Positions 3,258 to 17,466 of a stretch of DNA of 64,000 bases are shown here, piece by piece. The number at the start of each line of letters is the position of its first letter. Position 1 is the stretch's first letter. This DNA comes from Perkinsus olseni (taxonomy: Eukaryota). The notes beneath the pieces are model-generated. The model ran no database searches. It was not told where the DNA came from and saw only the letters and a list, made by a program, of their open reading frames with translations. The stretch spans positions 1 through 64,000 of the forward strand of contig JABANN010000110.1 in NCBI GenBank assembly GCA_013115125.1, given 5' to 3'. The position numbers and the translations under genes are program-made.

Positions 3258-6200
3258 TTAGGCCTCTGGACGAAGCTGCTTCGCATCATACGCAGGCCAG
3301 TCCTTGACGGGGTTGAAGTAAGCGAAGAGAGGATAAATAAGGTAAAGGATGAAGAGCACCCAAGCCATAACAGATCCCCAGAATTGGGTAGTGCCCTTGT
3401 ACTTCCTCGGGATGTTATTGTTTGTCATGATAACACGGCTGAGACCACTCTTCATATGAATGAAGAAACAAATGACACCGACGAGATAGAAGCATACCCA
3501 ACCGAAACTCTCGAAGATCTTGAAGGCCATCTTGTAGAGATCCTTGAAGTGGATGATGGGGCAGCTCGTGTCGTCATTGGCGCAAGGGAACCAGTTATCA
3601 CGCATCCAGTACTGAGGGCAATTAGCCTCAGAGATAAGACGGAACTGGAGGAGATGTACAATGAGGAAGACAAGAAGAATGCCACCAGAGATAGCCATCT
3701 CCAAGTCACGGACAGACGAGTTCATAGTCTTGAACTTGAATGTACGATCAGTGGCGACAACAACATGCAACAGTCCTGCGAGCAAGAGATAAATCTCAAC
3801 AGGGAGGAACAGTGTGCTCCACGGACAAGGATGGTTTAGGAGGTAGGCATACCCTTCGAAGCTCCTGTCACTGACCAACAGGTTGATGTTACCAAGAGCA
3901 TGAATGGTGACGAAGACCATGATGAAGATGGCAGAACGCTCCAATCCAGACTTATCAGACAGGACCTTGTAATTCTTGATGCTGAAGATGGTCTTGAGAG
4001 TATCAATGACGAACATCCAGATCATGTAACAGAGAGAGATGACATAGGAGGTAACAGAAGGTCCCAATGGTCCGAACATATCAGCCTTGTTGCGATCTTC
4101 ACCCCACCACTGTTCAGTGAGAGCCTTGGACTCGAACTGATCAGCCAGAAGAGGTTGAGCCAAGTCACCACCAGCGGCAGCAGGGCCCGCAGCCTTCTCG
4201 ACAAGTGGGCCAAGAGTAGCATCAGGAGCGTACTTCTCAATGACACCAGCGGGATGAATCATGTTGAACTCCTTAGAGGCATCCTTACCCGCGAAAGTAA
4301 GAATAGCCATCTTTCCACCAGGATGCTTGGGGAGGAAGTCAGTAACATCGAGCACCTCACCATTGATAACAACCCAGCAATCATCCTCGGTCGTATGCTT
4401 CGCCACTTCCTCCATGGTGATACCATTAGCGGGAGCGGAAGCAGCAGGAGCAGCTGCAGGCGTAGAAGCAGCAGTAGTGGGAGCAGGGGCAGGCGTAGAA
4501 GCAGCAGGCGCAGGCGTAGAAGCAGCAGGCGCAGGGGTGGAAGCAGCAGGCGCAGGGGTGGAAGCAGCAGGCGCAGGGGTGGAAGCAGCAGGCGCAGGGG
4601 TGGAAGCAACAGGCGCAGGCGTGGGCTTCGAAGCGGCCGGAGCAGCCGGAGCAGGTGCAGCCTTACCCTCAACAACGGGTCCGAGAATACAGTCGGAAGC
4701 GTACTTCTCAACAACATCCGGAGGATGAATCATATTGAACTCCTTGGAAGCGTCCTTACCCGCGAAGGTCATGATGGCGAGCTTTCCACCAGGATGCTCA
4801 GGAAGGAAGTTGGTGACGTTCAACACCTGACCGTTGAGGGCAACCCAGCAATCACTCTCGGTGTTGTGCTTGGCAACCTCGTCCATAGTATACCCAGACG
4901 CAGCAGCAGGAGCCGGCGTGGATGCAGGCGCAGGAGCCGAAGCAGCCGGAGCAGGTGCAGCCTTGCCCTCGACAACGGGTCCGAGAATACAGTCGGAAGC
5001 GTACTTCTCAACAACATCCGGGGGATGAATCATGTTGAACTCCTTAGAAGCGTCCTTACCCGCGAAGGTCATGATGGCGAGCTTTCCACCAGGATGCTCA
5101 GGGAGGAAGTTAGTGACGTTCAACACCTGACCGTTGAGGGCAACCCAGCAATCACTCTCGGTGTTGTGCTTGGCAACCTCGTCCANNNNNNNNNNNNNNN
5201 NNNNNNNNNNNNNNNNNNNNNNNNNNNNNNNNNNNNNNNNNNNNNNNNNNNNNNNNNNNNNNNNNNNNNNNNNNNNNNNNNNNNNTAGTGTAACCAGACG
5301 TAGCAGGAGCAGGAGCAGCTGCAGGAGCCGAAGCTGGGGCAGCGGCAGGAGCTGAGCCGTTTCCGACCACACCGATGACAGCATCAGGACAGTACTTCTG
5401 GATGATACCAGCAGGATGGATATCGTGGAACGGCGCAGTAGCGTCCTTACCACCATAGTTAAGAATAGAGATATCTCCACCAGGGTGGTCAGGCAAGAAA
5501 CCTGTTACATCCAAGACCTCACCGTCGATGACAACCCAGCATGACTCGCGAGAGTTGTGCTTCGAGATCTCATCCATAGTGTAAGACTTGCGACCATCAG
5601 TAGAAGGGGCGGCTACACTCGGAGCGGCGGCAGCAGTAGTTGCAGGTGCAGCGACAGCGGTTGCCTTGTCAACCAGTGGACCAAGGATAGCATCAGGAGC
5701 ATATTTCTCGACAACATCCGGAGGATGAATCATGTTGAACTCCTTCGTAGCATCCTTACCAGCGAAGGTCATGATGGCGAGCTTTCCACCAGGATGCTCA
5801 GGGAGGAAGTTGGTGACATCCAAGACCTTACCGTTAACAACAACCCAGCAATCACTCTCGGTGTGGTGCTTGGCGACCTCGTCAATAGTGTACCCAGGCA
5901 CAGCGGGAGCAGCTGCAGGAGCCGAAGCTGGGGCAGCGGCAGGAGCCGAGCCGTTTCCGACCACACCGATGACAGCATCAGGACAGTACTTCTGGATGAT
6001 GCCAGCAGGATGGATATCGTGGAACGGCGCAGTAGCGTCCTTACCACCATAGTTGAGAATAGAGATATCTCCACCAGGATGATCGGGCAAGAAACCTGTT
6101 ACATCCAAGACCTCACCGTCGATAACAACCCAGCACGAATCGCGAGAGTTGTGCTTCGAGATCTCGTCCATGGTGTACGACTGACCAGCAGGAGCAGCAG

Positions 6201-7750
6201 GGGTGGCCGGAGCAGACGCCGCTACGGCAGGTGCAGCGGGAGCGGCGGAAGCAGCGGCAGCAGTAGCCTTGTCAACTACTGGACCAATCATGGCATCAGG
6301 GGCGTACTTCTCAACAACGTCCGAAGGATGAATCATGTTGAACTCCTTGCTCGCGTCCTTACCAGCGAAGGTCATGATAGCGAGCTTTCCACCAGGATGC
6401 TCAGGGAGGAAATGGGTGACATTCAACACTTCACCGTTGATGATCACCCAGCAATCATTCTCAGTATGATGCTTCGCCACTTCCTCCTTAGTGTAACCGT
6501 GTGCAGCAGGGGCAGGAGCAGCAGCAGCAGCGACCTTGGCCGGGGCAGACTTCTTGGGTGCACTAGCAGGTGCCTTAGCAAGAGCAGGCAAGGACATACT
6601 CTTCTTAAGACCGAGAAGATCCTCACAAGCATTATCAGCAGTCAGGCGACCGAAGACAACGCAATCGAGAAGAGAGTTGCCACCCAAACGGTTGTTGCCG
6701 TGGACACCTCCCATGACCTCACCAGCAGCATAAAGGCCGCGGATTGGCTTCTTCGTCTCCTTGCTGATGACGCGACCAGCGGTATCAATCTTGAGACCAC
6801 CCATACAGTAGTGCACAAGGGGAGTGACAATAGCGACGTTGTAGTGGTCGTCCATCTGGAAGTCGTAGTTCTTGAAGAACTTCTTGCCGAACTTATCGAA
6901 GGTCTTGCCGGTAGGATAAGCATCATANNNNNNNNNNNNNNNNNNNNNNNNNNNNNNNNNNNNNNNNNNNNNNNNNNNNNNNNNNNNNNNNNNNNNNNNN
7001 NNNNNNNNNNNNNNNNNNNNNNTCAGCGCCAGCGTTAACACCCATCTTGATGCCATCACCAGTGCAATGCTCACCGTTGGTAGTTGACAACTTGAGCAAG
7101 TCGGGACGATACTTGGCGAGGAGACCATCCTTAGTGAAATCAGCACCGTAACCACCGGTGGCGAGGACTACAGGACCATAAACCTTATGTGATTCACCAT
7201 CGTGAGTGGTGTACGTAACACCAATAACATCACCAGCCTTGTTGGTGATCAGCTCGGTTGCACGAGCCTTGTTGATAATCTTACACCTATCAGGCAGGGC
7301 CTTGGAGATAGCCTCGGCCATCTGCATCTCGGCGTAGGTGATGGTCATACCAGGGAAACGCTCCTTACCACGATGGGTACGCTCAACAGAGTGACCACCC
7401 ATGCGAGCAAGAAGGGAAAGATCGAGATCGAAGTTGTCCATGAGCCAGTTGACAGAGGGGCCGGAATGCTCAACCATAGTCTTGATGAGCTCAGGACTCT
7501 TGGAGCCACCCTTCATGCAATCGAACTCGAACACCTCGTTGGAGTCCTTAACGCCGAGTCTCTTTTGGGTTCTGGTGCACGAACCGTTGATACCAGAAGT
7601 GGCCTTGGAGGAGTTCCCACCGCAGAATGCTGATTTATCAATAAGCAGTACGCTTCCACCATGTTCTAAAATACTATTAGCAGCAGAGAAACCTGCAAGG
7701 CCGCCACCAACCACGATAACTTGATTGGCCGGGGTTTCCGTCGAGGACAT
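3258..7750 (-). CDS. Fusion protein: Osm1/flavocytochrome-c-type fumarate reductase + at least 7 cytochrome b5 domains + cytochrome b558 (SdhC/FrdC-like) membrane domain
   Basis: N-terminal '[10 protein letters not shown]...[13 protein letters not shown]', '[14 protein letters not shown]', 'VHYCMGG', '[31 protein letters not shown]'. Seven b5 domains with HPGG and a second heme His. C-terminal TM domain with 'TIHALGN', 'LLHVVVA', 'IVHLLQF', 'FIHMKSG'. Interrupted only by N gaps; continuity across the gaps is inferred. Confidence 0.85.
4485..4620 (-). repeat. 21-bp coding minisatellite encoding an (ASTPAPA)n linker
   Basis: Tandem units such as agcagcaggcgcaggggtgga between the last two b5 domains. 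Confidence 0.85.
5186..5285. other. Assembly gap (100 N) inside the b5 array
   Basis: Run of N between 'SGYT' and 'DEVAKH', both parts of a b5 domain start; probably a collapsed repeat. Confidence 0.95.
6928..7022. other. Assembly gap (95 N) inside the flavoprotein domain
   Basis: Run of N where the capping domain of this family (QxHPT and ExxRG motifs) should lie; the real gap is probably longer than 95 nt. Confidence 0.9.
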
Positions 7751-11536: not shown

Positions 11537-13420
11537 ATGCTCCACTCACAGTCCGATACGGTGCGTGGAGACAAAAATGGCCCTGGCCGAATAGATGAGC
11601 TTTCTGGAAGCATCGGTGAACACGCTGTGGACAGCGGAGGTGATATGGGTGACTCGGAACATTTGATCCCGTGCGACCGCCGTTTAGCGCCCTCGGAGGT
11701 AGCAAAGCACGATAGCCGGGATGACTGTTGGATTATAGTCAACGGCCGCGTCCTGGACGTCACAGGATTCCTTGGTGACCACCCCGGTGGCGAGAAGTCG
11801 ATCCTTAATTTCGCCGGGAGGGATGCCTCACGGATGTTCAACATGATACACTCCCCCGATGTCATTGAGAAGTTCCTACCGGAAGATAAGATACTAGGCC
11901 CTGTTGCTGAAGAGGAGCCTGCCGGTAGCAAAGTTGATGAAGTGGATGTTCACAGTGAGGAGGACCATGAAAAGCGGGAAGACACGTTCGTAGTGCCGCG
12001 ATGCTGTCGGAATTCGGAGTCGGATACTACGACGAGTGTTCATCACGTCGATGAGTCTGAAGGAGGCTCTGCTGTGGACAGGGAGGACGCCGGCGAGGCC
12101 CACACGGAGCCGGCTGAATCCTGGTTGGTGTTAGGCGGGCAAGTTCACGACATGACGTCAGTGCTACCTGATCTGCTGGACGGAACGGATGAGTCCATTC
12201 TTGCCTTTGGTGGAATGCACTTGGCTGAGGGAGCATGTCCATCGAACTCGGACACTGCGGTGCAGCTAGGTGATGGCAGCACGGTGTCTCCGGTGGACTT
12301 TCTCCCAGTCGAGTCTGAAAGCGAGGAGCCTGTTCCTCAGGCTGGCCGGCGTTATATACCTATGACGGAGGTGGCCAAGCATTGTTCTGAGGACGACTGC
12401 TGGATCGTGATCAACGGCGAAGTCCTTGATGTCACGAGCTTCCTGTCGGAGCATCCAGGGGGCAAGAAGCCTATATTAAGTGTGGCTGGAGGGGACGCTT
12501 CGGAGAAGTATAATTTAGTTCACCCCAAAGAGTTCGTCGAGAAATATGTGCCCAACCTCGTCTTGGGGGATCTTTCCCACGATGGGCAAGAGGTCGCTCG
12601 GAGCTCACCTGAGGAGGCCTTGTCATTGGGGTTCTCGGAGGTCGCTCAGCGGTACCTCGTGTCTTTCTACTATCTTGTACTACTATTCGTCAAAGAGGCT
12701 TTGAGGTCCATTTTCACGGTGGAGAACTTTAAAGTATTGTCGGACCGTTCTGGGCTAACCCGGTCGGCTATCTTTCTCATGGCCTTCGTTACGATACATG
12801 CTTTGGGCAATATACACCTCTTCTTCGGCGCTGAGCACTTCAACGGATACGCGCACTTCCTCAACCACCCCGTCCCTGTGATCGACACTTTAGCACGCCC
12901 CATCGAGATCTACTTGCTGCTCGCTGGTCTTATGCATGTTATCGTTGCCGTAGACCGCACCTTCAAGTTCAAGAAAGAGCGGCTATCGTTGAAGGATATG
13001 GAAATGGGAATCACTGGCGCGATCCTCCTGGTTTTCTTGCTGGTGCACCTATTGCAGTTCCGGCTGGCCCCGGACGCGGTTTTCGCCCCGTTTGACTTTC
13101 GGTCACGGTGGTTACCTCCCTTCCACTGCTCTCCAGACAACGCAAGCTGTGAAATGGTTCGCGTCCGAGACCTCTACAAGGGAGTATTTGATTTGTTCAA
13201 AAGCCCGTTCTGGGTACTGTTCTATGCTATTGGAACCGCCGCCTGCTTTCATCACATGCGGGAGGGTCTTCACCGTATTGTTCGATCCAGCGAAGACGTC
13301 CCTTACAAGTACAATCTTACAGTACAGACCTGGGGTTCTGTCATGGCCTGGGTTGTCGGAATATTGTTCCTCTCTTTCCCTCTGTATGCGTATCTCAACA
13401 ACGAGAATAGACTTGTTTGA
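11537..13420 (+). CDS. Cytochrome b5 (2 intact + 1 degenerate) - cytochrome b558 (SdhC-like) membrane protein; paralog of the C-terminal part of 3258-7750
   Basis: Intronless 627-aa ORF; two HPGG b5 domains; TM domain '[24 protein letters not shown]...MHVIVAVDRTFKFK...VHLLQF...FHHMREG' clearly homologous to the fusion protein. Confidence 0.9.
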   Translation: MLHSQSDTVRGDKNGPGRIDELSGSIGEHAVDSGGDMGDSEHLIPCDRRLAPSEVAKHDSRDDCWIIVNGRVLDVTGFLGDHPGGEKSILNFAGRDASRMFNMIHSPDVIEKFLPEDKILGPVAEEEPAGSKVDEVDVHSEEDHEKREDTFVVPRCCRNSESDTTTSVHHVDESEGGSAVDREDAGEAHTEPAESWLVLGGQVHDMTSVLPDLLDGTDESILAFGGMHLAEGACPSNSDTAVQLGDGSTVSPVDFLPVESESEEPVPQAGRRYIPMTEVAKHCSEDDCWIVINGEVLDVTSFLSEHPGGKKPILSVAGGDASEKYNLVHPKEFVEKYVPNLVLGDLSHDGQEVARSSPEEALSLGFSEVAQRYLVSFYYLVLLFVKEALRSIFTVENFKVLSDRSGLTRSAIFLMAFVTIHALGNIHLFFGAEHFNGYAHFLNHPVPVIDTLARPIEIYLLLAGLMHVIVAVDRTFKFKKERLSLKDMEMGITGAILLVFLLVHLLQFRLAPDAVFAPFDFRSRWLPPFHCSPDNASCEMVRVRDLYKGVFDLFKSPFWVLFYAIGTAACFHHMREGLHRIVRSSEDVPYKYNLTVQTWGSVMAWVVGILFLSFPLYAYLNNENRLV

Positions 13421-13774: not shown

Positions 13775-16700
13775 ATGATTAAGAAGTTGCCTTTTTTCCG
13801 CAGTTGGCTCAGTCCCGCGAGGGTGCTGGGCTTACATCACATGTCCACCGCTGCTCATTTCCCCTCTCTTGCTGCTCCTGAAGCGGCTCGATCATCATTA
13901 GTGCCTCCCAAGGAGCACCCGATGCTCTCCGTCGAGGAATGCAAGGAGAAAATCCGTCAAGTGCTGCTGGATTATCAGGCGACCTTCCGAGCGCGGAAGT
14001 CTACTTTAGAACCTGAGCAACTACCAGTGCCTGATGTACTGGGGCGAGTCCTGGCTGCCGATGTTCACGCCAAAGACCCCTTCCCCCAGTGGCCGACTTC
14101 CATCATGGACGGCTTCTTGGTATGGCCGGTCACGGAGTCGCACTCAAGCGTCAAGAGCAGAAAGTAGTACTTCGGGAGGGTCTAACGAGAAACTCAGAAA
14201 GCTGTATCGAACTGCATGCCCGTACTCGAGGCGCTCCGTGGCTTAGTGACAGCATTGATATGGGAATGGAGCAACTTCAGTACGGTCTCCCATCGACGAG
14301 GAGAGTCACAGTGTAGTGGCATCGAAATTCTCGCCATATATTCAAGAACCCTCCATCATCGGAGTATGGCGTTCGATCAGCGTTCTTGTCTTTTCAGCGG
14401 AATCCTCTATAGAGAGCTGCGAGTGGTCTCCAACGTCACAGCTGGCCACGGTCTAGCCTCTGTGAGTGAGCACGACAAGGCGGCGTATGTAACCACCGGG
14501 ACGCTGGTTGCAACCACGGATCTCGCGGTCGTTAAGATCGAGGACTGCGAAATATCCGGTGACATTGTACGGGTTCCGGTCGTCGGCGTGGTGGCCGGGC
14601 TGAACCTTCGCTCGGTTGGCTCTGATATTGAGAAGGGGGAATGCATAGCGTCAAGCGGTGCGAAACTCACGCCGGCCTTACTCGCCTTGCTCAAAGGCAT
14701 ATCTGCAGTAGTCGATGTAATGCCCGTAGTCAAGGTGGCTGTTGTCTCCAGCGGAGATGAACTCATCAATGAGGAGGCGGCCGACACCAATGGCCCCATG
14801 CTCCATGCCCTCCTAGTTGAGCGTTTTGGCACAGCCGTGGAGATTCATCGTGTGCCCCCGCTGGTGGATGACTATGATCAGACAAGGCAGGCGCTTTTGG
14901 ATCTGGCTGCCTCGACCGACATCGTTATCACTACAGGAGCAGTGAGCAAAGGCTCGAAGGACTTCATCAAGAGAGCTCTTGAGGAGGAAGGGGAGGTGCT
15001 CTTCGGTGAAGTGTGCTTGAAGCCAGGGAAGCCCACCACCTTCGCGACCGTACACGGAACTCCGTTCTTCGCGCTTCCCGGTAACCCTGCGAGTGCCTAC
15101 GTCACCTTCTTCGTGTTTGTCGAGCCGTTCTTGAAGGCCCTGTTGCACAACCACGAGATGCGTGGGCCTGAGGAGGTTCATGTGACTCTTGCGGAGGATA
15201 TGCGGCAGACAGATCCCGTGCGCCCCGAGTTTGTGAGGGCCATCGTGGCTGCCACTCTGGATGGTCGCCTGGTAGCGAGGGGTGTCACTGGTGGCTGCTA
15301 CCAACGCAGTAGTAGGCTGCTCAGCTGTGTGGGTGTGAATGCCTTAGTAAGGCTGCCTGCTGGGGCGGGGACGGTCCCGAAGGGGGCCCGAATGCCGTGT
15401 CTCTTGACCGATCGCGTAGAGCCAATCGGAGAGGGCGATGATATTATTATGGATGACGTTGAAGCCGAGGCTCTCGTTTTCCGAAGACTAGTAGCCTGGC
15501 TGCAAGAGAGAACTGATGTGCAGAATATTGACCTGATGAACCTCGCTGGATTCTGCCGTAACTGCCTATCAAAGTGGTACGCTGAGGGTCGAGGAGTCGA
15601 GCTGGATGCGGCCAAGGAGCGCGTTTATGGTAGTGCTGGGTAGCAGCCGGATAGTTTTCTCGAAGAGCTCTGCGTCATGGTCATCATGTATTGAATCCAA
15701 ATTGTTCTTTATACAATTATGAGGCTCCCTGGGAATTGGAGCCTGCTGCTACAAAGTTAACACGCAATCTAATGCAACGTGTTCCTACTTTTCACTGTAC
15801 CGTTCATCCGCCCCGGCGAACCAACTGGTCACTCGTCTAATCGCCTGCTTACTTCGTGTGAGCAGCGGCTATCTTCAGACTAGTGAAGTATCCGCAGAGC
15901 TCGCTTGTAGAGCTTCCCGGGTACATATTACTAATAATCATCCGGTTGAGCCTTACGTTCAACTTATATAATAATAGTTGAGCGCTTATTATCCGGTCGA
16001 CACGCGCTACAAAGACTTCCTGACAAGGGAAAGCTTCTGTATACTCATCGCAACCGATCGGTCGCCTCTGTAGCCGAAGTCTTGGATGGGAATGCCAACT
16101 CAGTCGCTGTTCTGCAGGTATGCCCTATAACGAGTGGAAGGCTCGCTACCAGACGCCCGCCAGTGAGGAGGCTAAGACTAGGTTCGCTGAAGTTCACACT
16201 GCCAAGGCGAGGACGGCGTGCGGGCATTCAACAGGTATCATCAGTTGGGGTTCGGACTGGTTCTTAAACCTAGCTTCGACGTTATTGTTGTTGTGCTACT
16301 CTCCATGGTCGCCCTCTGCTTTTATGGTGAACGCTCTGTGTTGTGAACTGTTGCTCTCTCTGTAGTCGTCATAACCTTCCAGCCATTCTCGAAGCGGGGC
16401 TGTGGTATCAGTTCTTCTTCTCTCAGGCCCCTCTATCCATCACCACACCTCCCCTCCTAGCGCTTCCACGGCAATCACTCTGGGTGTTGTGACGTGCAGC
16501 GACCGAGCATCTCAGGGAGTGTATAACGATGAGGCTGGACCATTGGTGGCGAGGTTATGCGGAAAACCAGACGCTTCGGTGAGAGGGCATCCTCCACCCA
16601 ATCATTCGTCGGGCTCGAAGTCGAACAACTGCTAGTCTACAATCATCTTGCATCGTGCAGCGTCCTCCAATAGATCTAGACTCGCTACCCACCCCATGCG

Positions 16701-17196
16701 GGCGATAAGATGCTGCATGGCGCTGAGCAGAACTCAATTTCAGAACGGCTTCACTCATCAGCGAGACATTCTCTCAGGTAGTCGTCGTCCCGGACGACGT
16801 ATCATCGATCCAGAAGGCTGTAGTGGACCTCCGCGATCGCCACGGGTGTAGGTTGGTCATCACCACTGGTGGTACAGGCTTCTCGAAGAGGGATGTCACG
16901 CCGGAGGCTGTACTGCCGATGTTGGAGAAGAGGGCCACGGGGATCGAGCATATGCTGCTGCGCTACGGCCAAGGTAATTTCGTGGCGCGCGACGGAGCAC
17001 ATGGTCTTCTGCAGAGCGGTCGAAGAGCGGCCTCTTCACCTACCTGTCCCGTCCAGTTGCTGGTGTGCTTGAGGGAAGCCCGGCCTGTGTTGTCGTCACT
17101 CTGCCGGGCAGCCCGCGGGCTGTGGAGGAGATTCTCGGCTGTGAACAGATCGTCAGCGTCCTGTTCGAAGCTGCGCGAATTGCATCCGAGACATGA
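13775..17196 (+). CDS. Molybdenum cofactor biosynthesis protein (CNX1/gephyrin-like): MoeA(E) - DUF1244 - MogA(G) fusion
   Basis: MoeA motifs 'LGRVLAADV...SIMDG', 'SSGDEL', 'KPGKP', 'LPGNPAS', 'QRSSRLLS'. DUF1244-like 'FRRLVAWLQERTDVQNIDLMNLAGFCRNCLSKWY...YGMPYNEWK'. MogA motifs 'TCSDRA', 'VVPDD', 'TTGGTGFSKRDVTPEA', 'LSRPVAG', 'TLPGSPRAV'. The start could be 13712-13841. Confidence 0.88.
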
Positions 17197-17466
17197 TTTT
17201 TTAACTGCGACGTTTGTGAACTACCAGTTTGTTTCCAGTCGTTCCTTGCCCATTGCGTTCGAGTGGGAGTAGCTTGAGAGTCCAAGGCTGACTGAGCAAC
17301 ACTAGAGCGGTGAGGCCGAGCATTTGCGAGTGAGACTATCATGCAGAAGGTACCCTTCCTGAGAAGTTTTGAATGAGGGACCATTTAAACGCCCTACCGG
17401 TGCGACGGACTGAAGGCGTGGAATTCTGGACGCTCTGGATTTTAGGACTGTTTCTCCTCTTCCCCG

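Follow-up and report, generated by a model that had tools for sequence, protein, structure and literature searches.

The shellfish parasite Perkinsus olseni carries, on the + strand of a 64,000-nucleotide stretch of DNA (contig JABANN010000110.1 of assembly GCA_013115125.1, positions 1 to 64,000; termed the window), a spliced gene that encodes a MoeA (E) domain, a DUF1244 domain and a MogA (G) domain in one protein. Judged by its sequence, the gene specifies a molybdenum (Mo) insertase whose domains are arranged as in plants (E before G), an accessory DUF1244 module lying ahead of G. The fusion is real and expressed and represents an architectural variation on a known enzyme. Synthesis of the molybdenum cofactor (Moco) is regarded as a solved pathway on the strength of work in E. 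coli, plants, fungi and animals. A functional link between DUF1244 and this pathway, in protists and proteobacteria alike, is very likely, and the domain is probably an accessory factor of Moco synthesis that was not recognised before. Such a Rosetta-stone link had been proposed in an earlier sequence-only reading of the window, and it is supported by protein fusions, bacterial co-occurrence and operons.

The identity of the domains is evident from Pfam profiles. In the frame of exon 2, MoeA_N, MoCF_biosynth and MoeA_C are followed by positions 1-43 of the DUF1244 profile (58.6 bits, E 7e-16), while exon 3 supplies positions 44-66 (26.3 bits, E 8e-6), slightly below the gathering cut-off of the family (PF06844, 27 bits) when taken on its own. 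The joined database protein matches positions 1-66 of 67 with 97.4 bits (E 5e-28), above the cut-off, so the family assignment of the sequence-only reading survives a Pfam scan. The DUF1244 core, N-x3-M-x4-FCRNC-x3-W followed by YGM, is present. As in plant-type E-G proteins, a single spliced frame encodes MoeA_N, MoCF and MoeA_C and, at its C-terminal end, the G domain. Alignment to Jatropha CNX1 indicates that the E domain retains the motifs DG, GDEL, KPGKP, PGNP and SSRL and the G domain the motifs SDRA, PDD, GGTG, RDVTPEA and LSR, of which GGTG is named as a G-domain motif in PMC3896444. An AlphaFold model of the full protein, built from 35 sequences (mean pLDDT 75, pTM 0.51), matches the structures of Cnx1E, gephyrin E and MoeA. 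A low-confidence linker joins G and DUF1244 in this model, and the DUF1244 part of the full-length monomer is of moderate to low confidence.

Among characterized systems, plant Cnx1 is closest, sharing domain order and motifs with the P. olseni protein; no structure matches the model better than its E domain (Arabidopsis structures such as 6GAX and 5G2R; E 6e-29). However, the E domain of Perkinsus has diverged further than that of plant CNX1 (scores of 215 and 327 bits, respectively, against the MoeA model), and all four plant-type E-G proteins fetched lack both DUF1244, as the sequence-only reading had held for CNX1, and an S-x-V-C motif between E and G. Gephyrin (G-C-E) contains the same two catalytic domains in reverse order (PMC11733289), whereas E. 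coli has them as separate proteins, MogA and MoeA, and has no DUF1244. The P. olseni G domain reaches neither the cut-off for proteobacterial MoaB (TIGR02667; 64.5 bits, cut-off 222) nor that for the E. coli-type MogA equivalog (NF006932; 107.6 bits, cut-off 158). Since plant CNX1 also falls below the latter (127.7 bits), failing it lowers only the case for a bacterial MogA. The DUF1244 part matches the SMc04008-like structures 2O35 from Sinorhizobium meliloti (E 8e-18) and 3FYB from Alcanivorax borkumensis (E 2.5e-13); it differs from the stand-alone bacterial proteins in being fused, split by an intron and extended by a cysteine-containing arm.

Evidence for splicing comes from contigs of four public runs (X2, X3, X5 and X19). 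Of these, X5 is recorded as RNA, X2 and X3 were guessed to be RNA and the kind of X19 is not stated; runs other than X5 are taken as RNA because their contigs are spliced. The gene has five introns, all with GT..AG borders. Introns 2, 3 and 4 (15630-16117, 16235-16426 and 16579-16777) are skipped in contigs of all four runs, and introns 1 and 5 (14164-14397 and 16974-17014) in contigs of three of the four. One contig, from X2, extends from 15202 to 17201 and covers MoeA_C, DUF1244 and the G domain up to its end; no single contig of the four runs spans the whole gene. The six-exon model lacks internal stops and is letter-identical to database protein P0001 (P. olseni FOL46_000500), which has 763 amino acids and starts at ATG 13751. 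Contigs of the Mo-insertase start at about 13802-13807, and therefore ATG 13841, giving 733 amino acids, is the likelier true start. Together with the Pfam matches, the spliced contigs and the identity to P0001 bear out the placement of DUF1244 between MoeA and MogA in one frame. The spliced contigs also rule out an annotation artefact or read-through as the source of the fusion. The sequence-only reading had introns 2, 4 and 5 right; its start of intron 3 at 16234 is moved by the contigs to 16235, and it did not list intron 1. It had also raised the prospect of transcripts ending at a stop at 15643. The main contigs are spliced past this point, and only a minor X19 contig keeps intron 2 (depth 5.5, versus 31.2 for the spliced form) and would terminate at 15641-15643. 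The low-depth retention is noted at 15603-16146, and two database models, P0004 and P0009, end shortly beyond that point and thus comprise E and half of DUF1244.

The features of the gene, all on the + strand, can be laid out as follows. Coding exon 1 (13841-14163, counted from the likely start) contains MoeA_N from 13928, according to Pfam and contigs. After intron 1, exon 2 carries the remaining MoeA/E domain (14398-15391), with MoeA_N extending to 14695, MoCF at 14738-15136 and MoeA_C at 15209-15391; within this segment the alignment places GDEL, KPGKP, LPGNP and SSRL. In the same exon and frame, the N-terminal half of DUF1244 occupies 15458-15629, including the CxxC (CRNC) at 15554-15565. 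Intron 2 interrupts DUF1244 and holds the in-frame stop mentioned above. Exon 3 (16118-16234) contains the C-terminal half to about 16203, with HTAK at 16195-16206 and ARTACG at 16207-16224. Exon 4 (16427-16578) encodes a PSIHHH linker, which is not conserved, and the start of the G domain (TCSDRA, 16492-16509); exon 5 (16778-16973) encodes the G-domain motifs VVPDD, GGTG and RDVTPEA; and exon 6 (17015-17196) encodes the end of the domain (LSRPVAG) and the stop.

The fusion is not confined to Perkinsus. Three targeted searches listed 322 proteins (the best 120 of 864, 120 of 1515 and 120 of 214 matches), in proportions that reflect the queries. DUF1244 is present in 318 of them, and 158 of these 318 also have a Mo-insertase domain, G or E. 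With DUF1244 written as D, the architectures among the matches listed are D-G (99), several DUF1244 matches before G (14), E-D-G (26), E-DD-G (6), D-E-G (5), D-E (2), and D-G-G, D-G-D-E and E-DD (one each); three E-D proteins are Perkinsus records that end before or early in G. Hosts include three Perkinsus species, Pyrodinium, Alexandrium, Durusdinium, Chrysotila, Prymnesium, Diplonema, Eutreptiella, Nitzschia, a Bacillariaceae diatom and Hondaea. Restriction to Perkinsus, which would have left the sequence-only reading without a phyletic link, is thus ruled out by fusions in alveolates, stramenopiles, haptophytes and Euglenozoa. In the matches listed, dinoflagellates, haptophytes, diatoms, a labyrinthulid and euglenozoans mostly have D-G, and among the named hosts E-D-G occurs only in Perkinsus. 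Protein P0248 of Nitzschia inconspicua, for instance, is of the D-G form. One E-D-G protein, P0036, has an N-terminal RRM domain and may be a merged gene model.

In proteobacteria, the distribution of DUF1244 tracks that of MoeA. The survey comprised 251 alphaproteobacterial genomes that were searched and 250 gammaproteobacterial genomes that were scored; the counts and their Fisher values ignore kinship, the genomes come without taxonomy or completeness figures, many of them are fragmented, and the tallies include three unpublished genomes, with no conclusion resting on these alone. MoeA is found in 211 of 212 DUF1244-positive genomes, where about 69 exceptions would be expected by chance. 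All 143 DUF1244-positive alphaproteobacteria have MoeA_C, and DUF1244 occurs in none of the 77 MoeA_C-negative genomes (43.9 expected if independent). In gammaproteobacteria, 68 of 69 DUF1244-positive genomes have MoeA_C, against 24.8 expected exceptions. Genome size as the sole cause is ruled out by the presence of MoeA in 37 of 37 DUF1244-positive alphaproteobacterial genomes of 2.5 Mb or less. N-formylglutamate amidohydrolase (FGase), a control of equal prevalence, is a poorer predictor of DUF1244 than MoeA: among genomes of similar small size, DUF1244 is present in 0 of 21 with FGase and without MoeA versus 12 of 22 with MoeA and without FGase. A subunit of the xanthine-oxidase family is absent from 26 of the 69 DUF1244-positive gammaproteobacteria, which rules out a link solely to these enzymes and therefore points to the pathway rather than to that enzyme family.

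Gene order provides further support in gammaproteobacteria. Of 30 loci picked on DUF1244 score alone, five have moeA, moeB/mobA/mobB or moaA within 300 bp of the DUF1244 CxxC, with the Moco genes directly adjoining DUF1244 in three arrangements. Another nine loci (L132-L139 and L081) were fetched after MoeA had been seen nearby in most of them and illustrate arrangements, not frequencies: L132 reads tupABC-mobA-mobB-moeA-DUF1244, in L081 the C-terminal half of moeA overlaps DUF1244, and in L136-L139, all gammaproteobacterial, DUF1244 adjoins moeB in the same orientation. Among 20 loci from small alphaproteobacterial genomes, two near-identical ones contain moaB and a coxG/S/L-type cluster. In an Azospirillum locus (L073), a DUF2478-DUF4213-DUF364 protein lies directly upstream of DUF1244 and moeA is convergent (3749-4981 and 5475-6683 of that locus); the protein is possibly a further Moco-linked one.

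Within the pathway, the task of G is to adenylate molybdopterin (MPT) and that of E to insert molybdate (PMC5817353, PMC6321594). DUF1244 is fused most often to G, and in bacteria MoaB predicts its presence best; DUF1244 therefore probably serves MPT adenylation, tethered on G in protists and acting as an untethered partner of MoaB where proteobacteria lack MogA. Among 160 MoeA-positive gammaproteobacteria, DUF1244 is present in 66 of 109 with MoaB, in 2 of 51 without MoaB and in 0 of 39 with MogA only; both gammaproteobacterial genomes that combine MogA with DUF1244 have MoaB as well. In 17 hand-picked, mostly small DUF1244-positive alphaproteobacterial genomes MoaB was found in 16, six of them under the curated cut-off, and 31 DUF1244-negative, MoeA-positive alphaproteobacteria have MoaB in 15 cases and MogA in 3. 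The control genome of Caulobacter vibrioides has DUF1244, MoaB and MoeA_C and lacks MogA. The E. coli control has MoaB and MogA and no DUF1244. According to PMC3896444, E. coli MoaB is inactive, and the activity of MoaB in bacteria that lack MogA was flagged there for study. The sequence-only reading had suggested that DUF1244 might act during Mo insertion; its link to Moco stands, whereas the step favoured by the evidence is adenylation by G or MoaB. A role closer to insertion, as a molybdate chaperone or a filter between Mo, tungsten and sulfate that feeds the E domain, is very improbable. The position of DUF1244 at the end of the tup–moeA operon of L132 and directly behind the moeA C-terminal half in L081 would suit it, and its conserved R, K, N and H side chains are candidates for oxyanion binding. 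However, DUF1244 in MoeA-positive genomes follows MoaB and not MoeA alone, and D-G is far commoner than D-E among the matches listed.

The residues conserved in DUF1244 suggest how it might assist adenylation. The domain is all-helical, and in a model of a bacterial member (pLDDT 94; root-mean-square deviation 0.7-1.0 Å from 3FYB) a helix starts at the CxxC. All 57 bacterial sequences compared share N, M, FCRNC, W and YGM without variation, and the CxxC is intact in 215 of 217 DUF1244 matches. Near the domain end, a HA.H-type element and a cysteine motif just before the His run of the P. olseni protein are conserved; the linker cysteine and the domain-end histidine are present in every one of 90 aligned D-G proteins, and C583, in exon 3, is nearly invariant in 35 aligned sequences. 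Some cysteine is present in 139 of 140 linkers, a count that is weak alone because about 79% would be expected by chance; weight is therefore placed on the invariant column and on a motif of the S[DN]VC[CG] type, found in 109 of 140 linkers and represented in Perkinsus by ARTACG. In D-E and D-E-G proteins the cysteine motif stands beside DUF1244 in seven of seven cases, N-terminal of it in six, whereas no cysteine occurs within 50 residues ahead of G in the five D-E-G proteins. The motif moves with DUF1244 when the domain order changes, so the arm belongs to DUF1244 and not to G. The His-rich linker, which the sequence-only reading had proposed as a possible metal handler together with DUF1244, fared worse: 8 of 146 D..G proteins among the matches listed, three of the eight from Perkinsus, have an HH pair, which rules out a conserved feature. 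A C-terminus of the form HA-x-[IV]-SGH is present in 5 of 57 bacterial DUF1244 proteins (L081, L149, L151 and P0010 among them) and resembles the eukaryotic HA.H element.

Because the CxxC is invariant and the cysteine arm mobile, DUF1244 may well act through a thiol site; metal-based protection or priming of the MPT dithiolene at the G step is about an even bet on these sequence patterns. Copper reportedly binds the MPT dithiolene on Cnx1G. In the proposed mechanism, the CRNC of an interlocked DUF1244 dimer, joined in eukaryotes by the S-x-V-C(C) arm and the C-terminal histidine, would bind a soft metal (copper or zinc), and this site would cap the air-sensitive dithiolene or clear a wrong metal from it. 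G would then adenylate MPT and pass MPT-AMP to E for molybdate insertion. The free cofactor is known to be air-sensitive and to be stabilised by thiol reagents (PMC9370521). A more far-reaching version, which we regard as tentative, holds that DUF1244 turns proteobacterial MoaB into a working MPT adenylyltransferase, or supplies it with metal-capped MPT, and that protists fused DUF1244 to G and added a swinging cysteine arm by which a metal ion passes between DUF1244 and the MPT dithiolene. MoaB is a G-fold paralogue that co-occurs with DUF1244; protist G domains are not MoaB by score (64-72 bits, cut-off 222).

The same anatomy can be read in two other ways. DUF1244 might be a pterin carrier or scaffold, its interlocked dimer binding MPT, MPT-AMP or Moco in a polar and aromatic pocket or cross-linking G trimers and E dimers for channelling. 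The invariance of N, M, F, R, N, W, Y and G besides the Cys pair would fit such a pocket, a SCOP review counts the family as one of interlocked obligate oligomers (PMC2954204), tandem duplication occurs (at least six E-DD-G proteins), fusion is to E as well as to G, and Moco carriers of other folds exist (PMC6321594, PMC9370521). However, a carrier leaves the invariant CxxC and the separately travelling cysteine arm unexplained. Fold searches listed no likeness to a known carrier (MCP, XdhC or similar), an absence that does not settle the matter; among 48,161 chains the two DUF1244 entries alone stand out (next best Z 4.0), and a search of the ESM Atlas yielded no usable match. This reading is unlikely. 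A thiol-redox or sulfur relay, in which the CxxC and the mobile cysteine would reduce oxidised MPT or carry a persulfide for MPT synthase on the MoeB/MoaD side, with the product passed to G, is distinctly unlikely. The helix-opening CxxC, the co-oriented moeB neighbours of L136-L139 and the stabilising effect of thiol reagents on the free cofactor (PMC9370521) would agree with it; yet those loci share one arrangement and probably represent one clade, the all-helical fold is not thioredoxin-like, and the eukaryotic fusions are all to G or E, with none to MoeB, MoaD or MoaE among the 322 proteins listed.

Several observations weigh against a Moco role of DUF1244 at the adenylation step. The co-occurrence counts are uncorrected for kinship. 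Many genomes with MoaB do without DUF1244 (43 of the 109 MoaB-positive gammaproteobacteria and the 15 among the 31 DUF1244-negative alphaproteobacteria), so it is not generally required; it is missing from 10 of 11 MoeA-positive control genomes, as from the fetched plant-type E-G proteins, and from 13 of 14 control genomes in total, which argues against an obligatory role. Protist G domains score higher against the MogA and MoaC/MoaB models than against that of proteobacterial MoaB. With regard to the thiol site, the Perkinsus ARTACG is a degenerate form of the motif, and an extra cysteine is present in just 2 of 57 bacterial stand-alone DUF1244 proteins. Moreover, in the 80 best-scoring DUF1244 loci (L001-L080), mostly alphaproteobacterial, a Moco-synthesis gene lies within 5 kb in one, and the dominant neighbour clusters are gapR (53), glycerate kinase (38), pyruvate kinase (26) and FGase (20). 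With five in 30 gammaproteobacterial loci adjoining Moco genes, the neighbourhood evidence from bacteria is mixed. A second large class of fusions, at least 129 FGase-DUF1244 proteins (P0012, for example), has named members from alphaproteobacteria, mostly of the Hyphomicrobiaceae type, and a median FGase identity of 57%.

These neighbours and FGase fusions are what would be expected if DUF1244 had no Moco role, working instead with FGase or with central-metabolism neighbours, and if its eukaryotic fusion were one inherited accident. A quick DUF1244 tree (106 rows, 107 columns) has four label changes and no resolution, and is compatible with a single eukaryotic origin. This explanation is nevertheless very improbable. 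DUF1244 is kept in none of the 21 genomes that have FGase without MoeA, and 12 DUF1244-positive genomes lack FGase; it stayed beside Mo-insertase domains through several re-orderings; and Moco genes directly adjoin it in at least three arrangements. FGase can be considered a second Rosetta-stone partner of DUF1244. The nucleoid protein gene gapR (PF10073), found within 5 kb in the 53 loci mentioned and usually the next co-oriented gene, is left unexplained by a Moco link.

The available portions of the literature that names the DUF1244/SMc04008 family give no function and do not mention Moco, and no mention of PF06844 was found in a search that mostly left out subscription journals. Under the same coverage, no description of a DUF1244–Mo-insertase fusion was found in DUF1244, SMc04008, Perkinsus-Moco, MoaB/MogA or algal Moco literature. 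The term DUF1244 is absent from the accessible text of PMC11733289, PMC11489736, PMC6147048 and PMC13262936, among them three papers on Mo-insertase evolution; the data set of PMC11733289 includes P. olseni. If DUF1244 serves Moco synthesis as proposed, a small protein family with two solved structures gains a pathway and a probable step. On the more far-reaching version, much of the marine phytoplankton and many alpha- and gammaproteobacteria would make Moco with a step that the models from plants, animals and E. coli lack. Algal nitrate reductase requires Moco, and DUF1244 may therefore have a bearing on how diatoms, dinoflagellates and haptophytes use nitrate. Furthermore, the link to MoaB makes testable the question, raised in PMC3896444, of MoaB activity in bacteria lacking MogA.

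Other features flank the gene in the window. Upstream, an open reading frame on the + strand (11537-13420, 627 amino acids) contains three cytochrome b5 domains and a membrane part that is weakly Sdh_cyt-like. In P. olseni this b5 gene and the Mo-insertase gene are represented by separate contigs. In Perkinsus chesapeaki, two b5 domains and the MoeA part are combined in database model P0009, a hint that the order of the two genes is conserved; the model itself is probably a merged one. Downstream, contigs from X5 and X19 have a short non-genomic 5ʹ end at 17444, which we take to resemble the Perkinsus spliced leader, and a polypyrimidine-AG stretch is located at about 13804-13812, where the Mo-insertase contigs begin.

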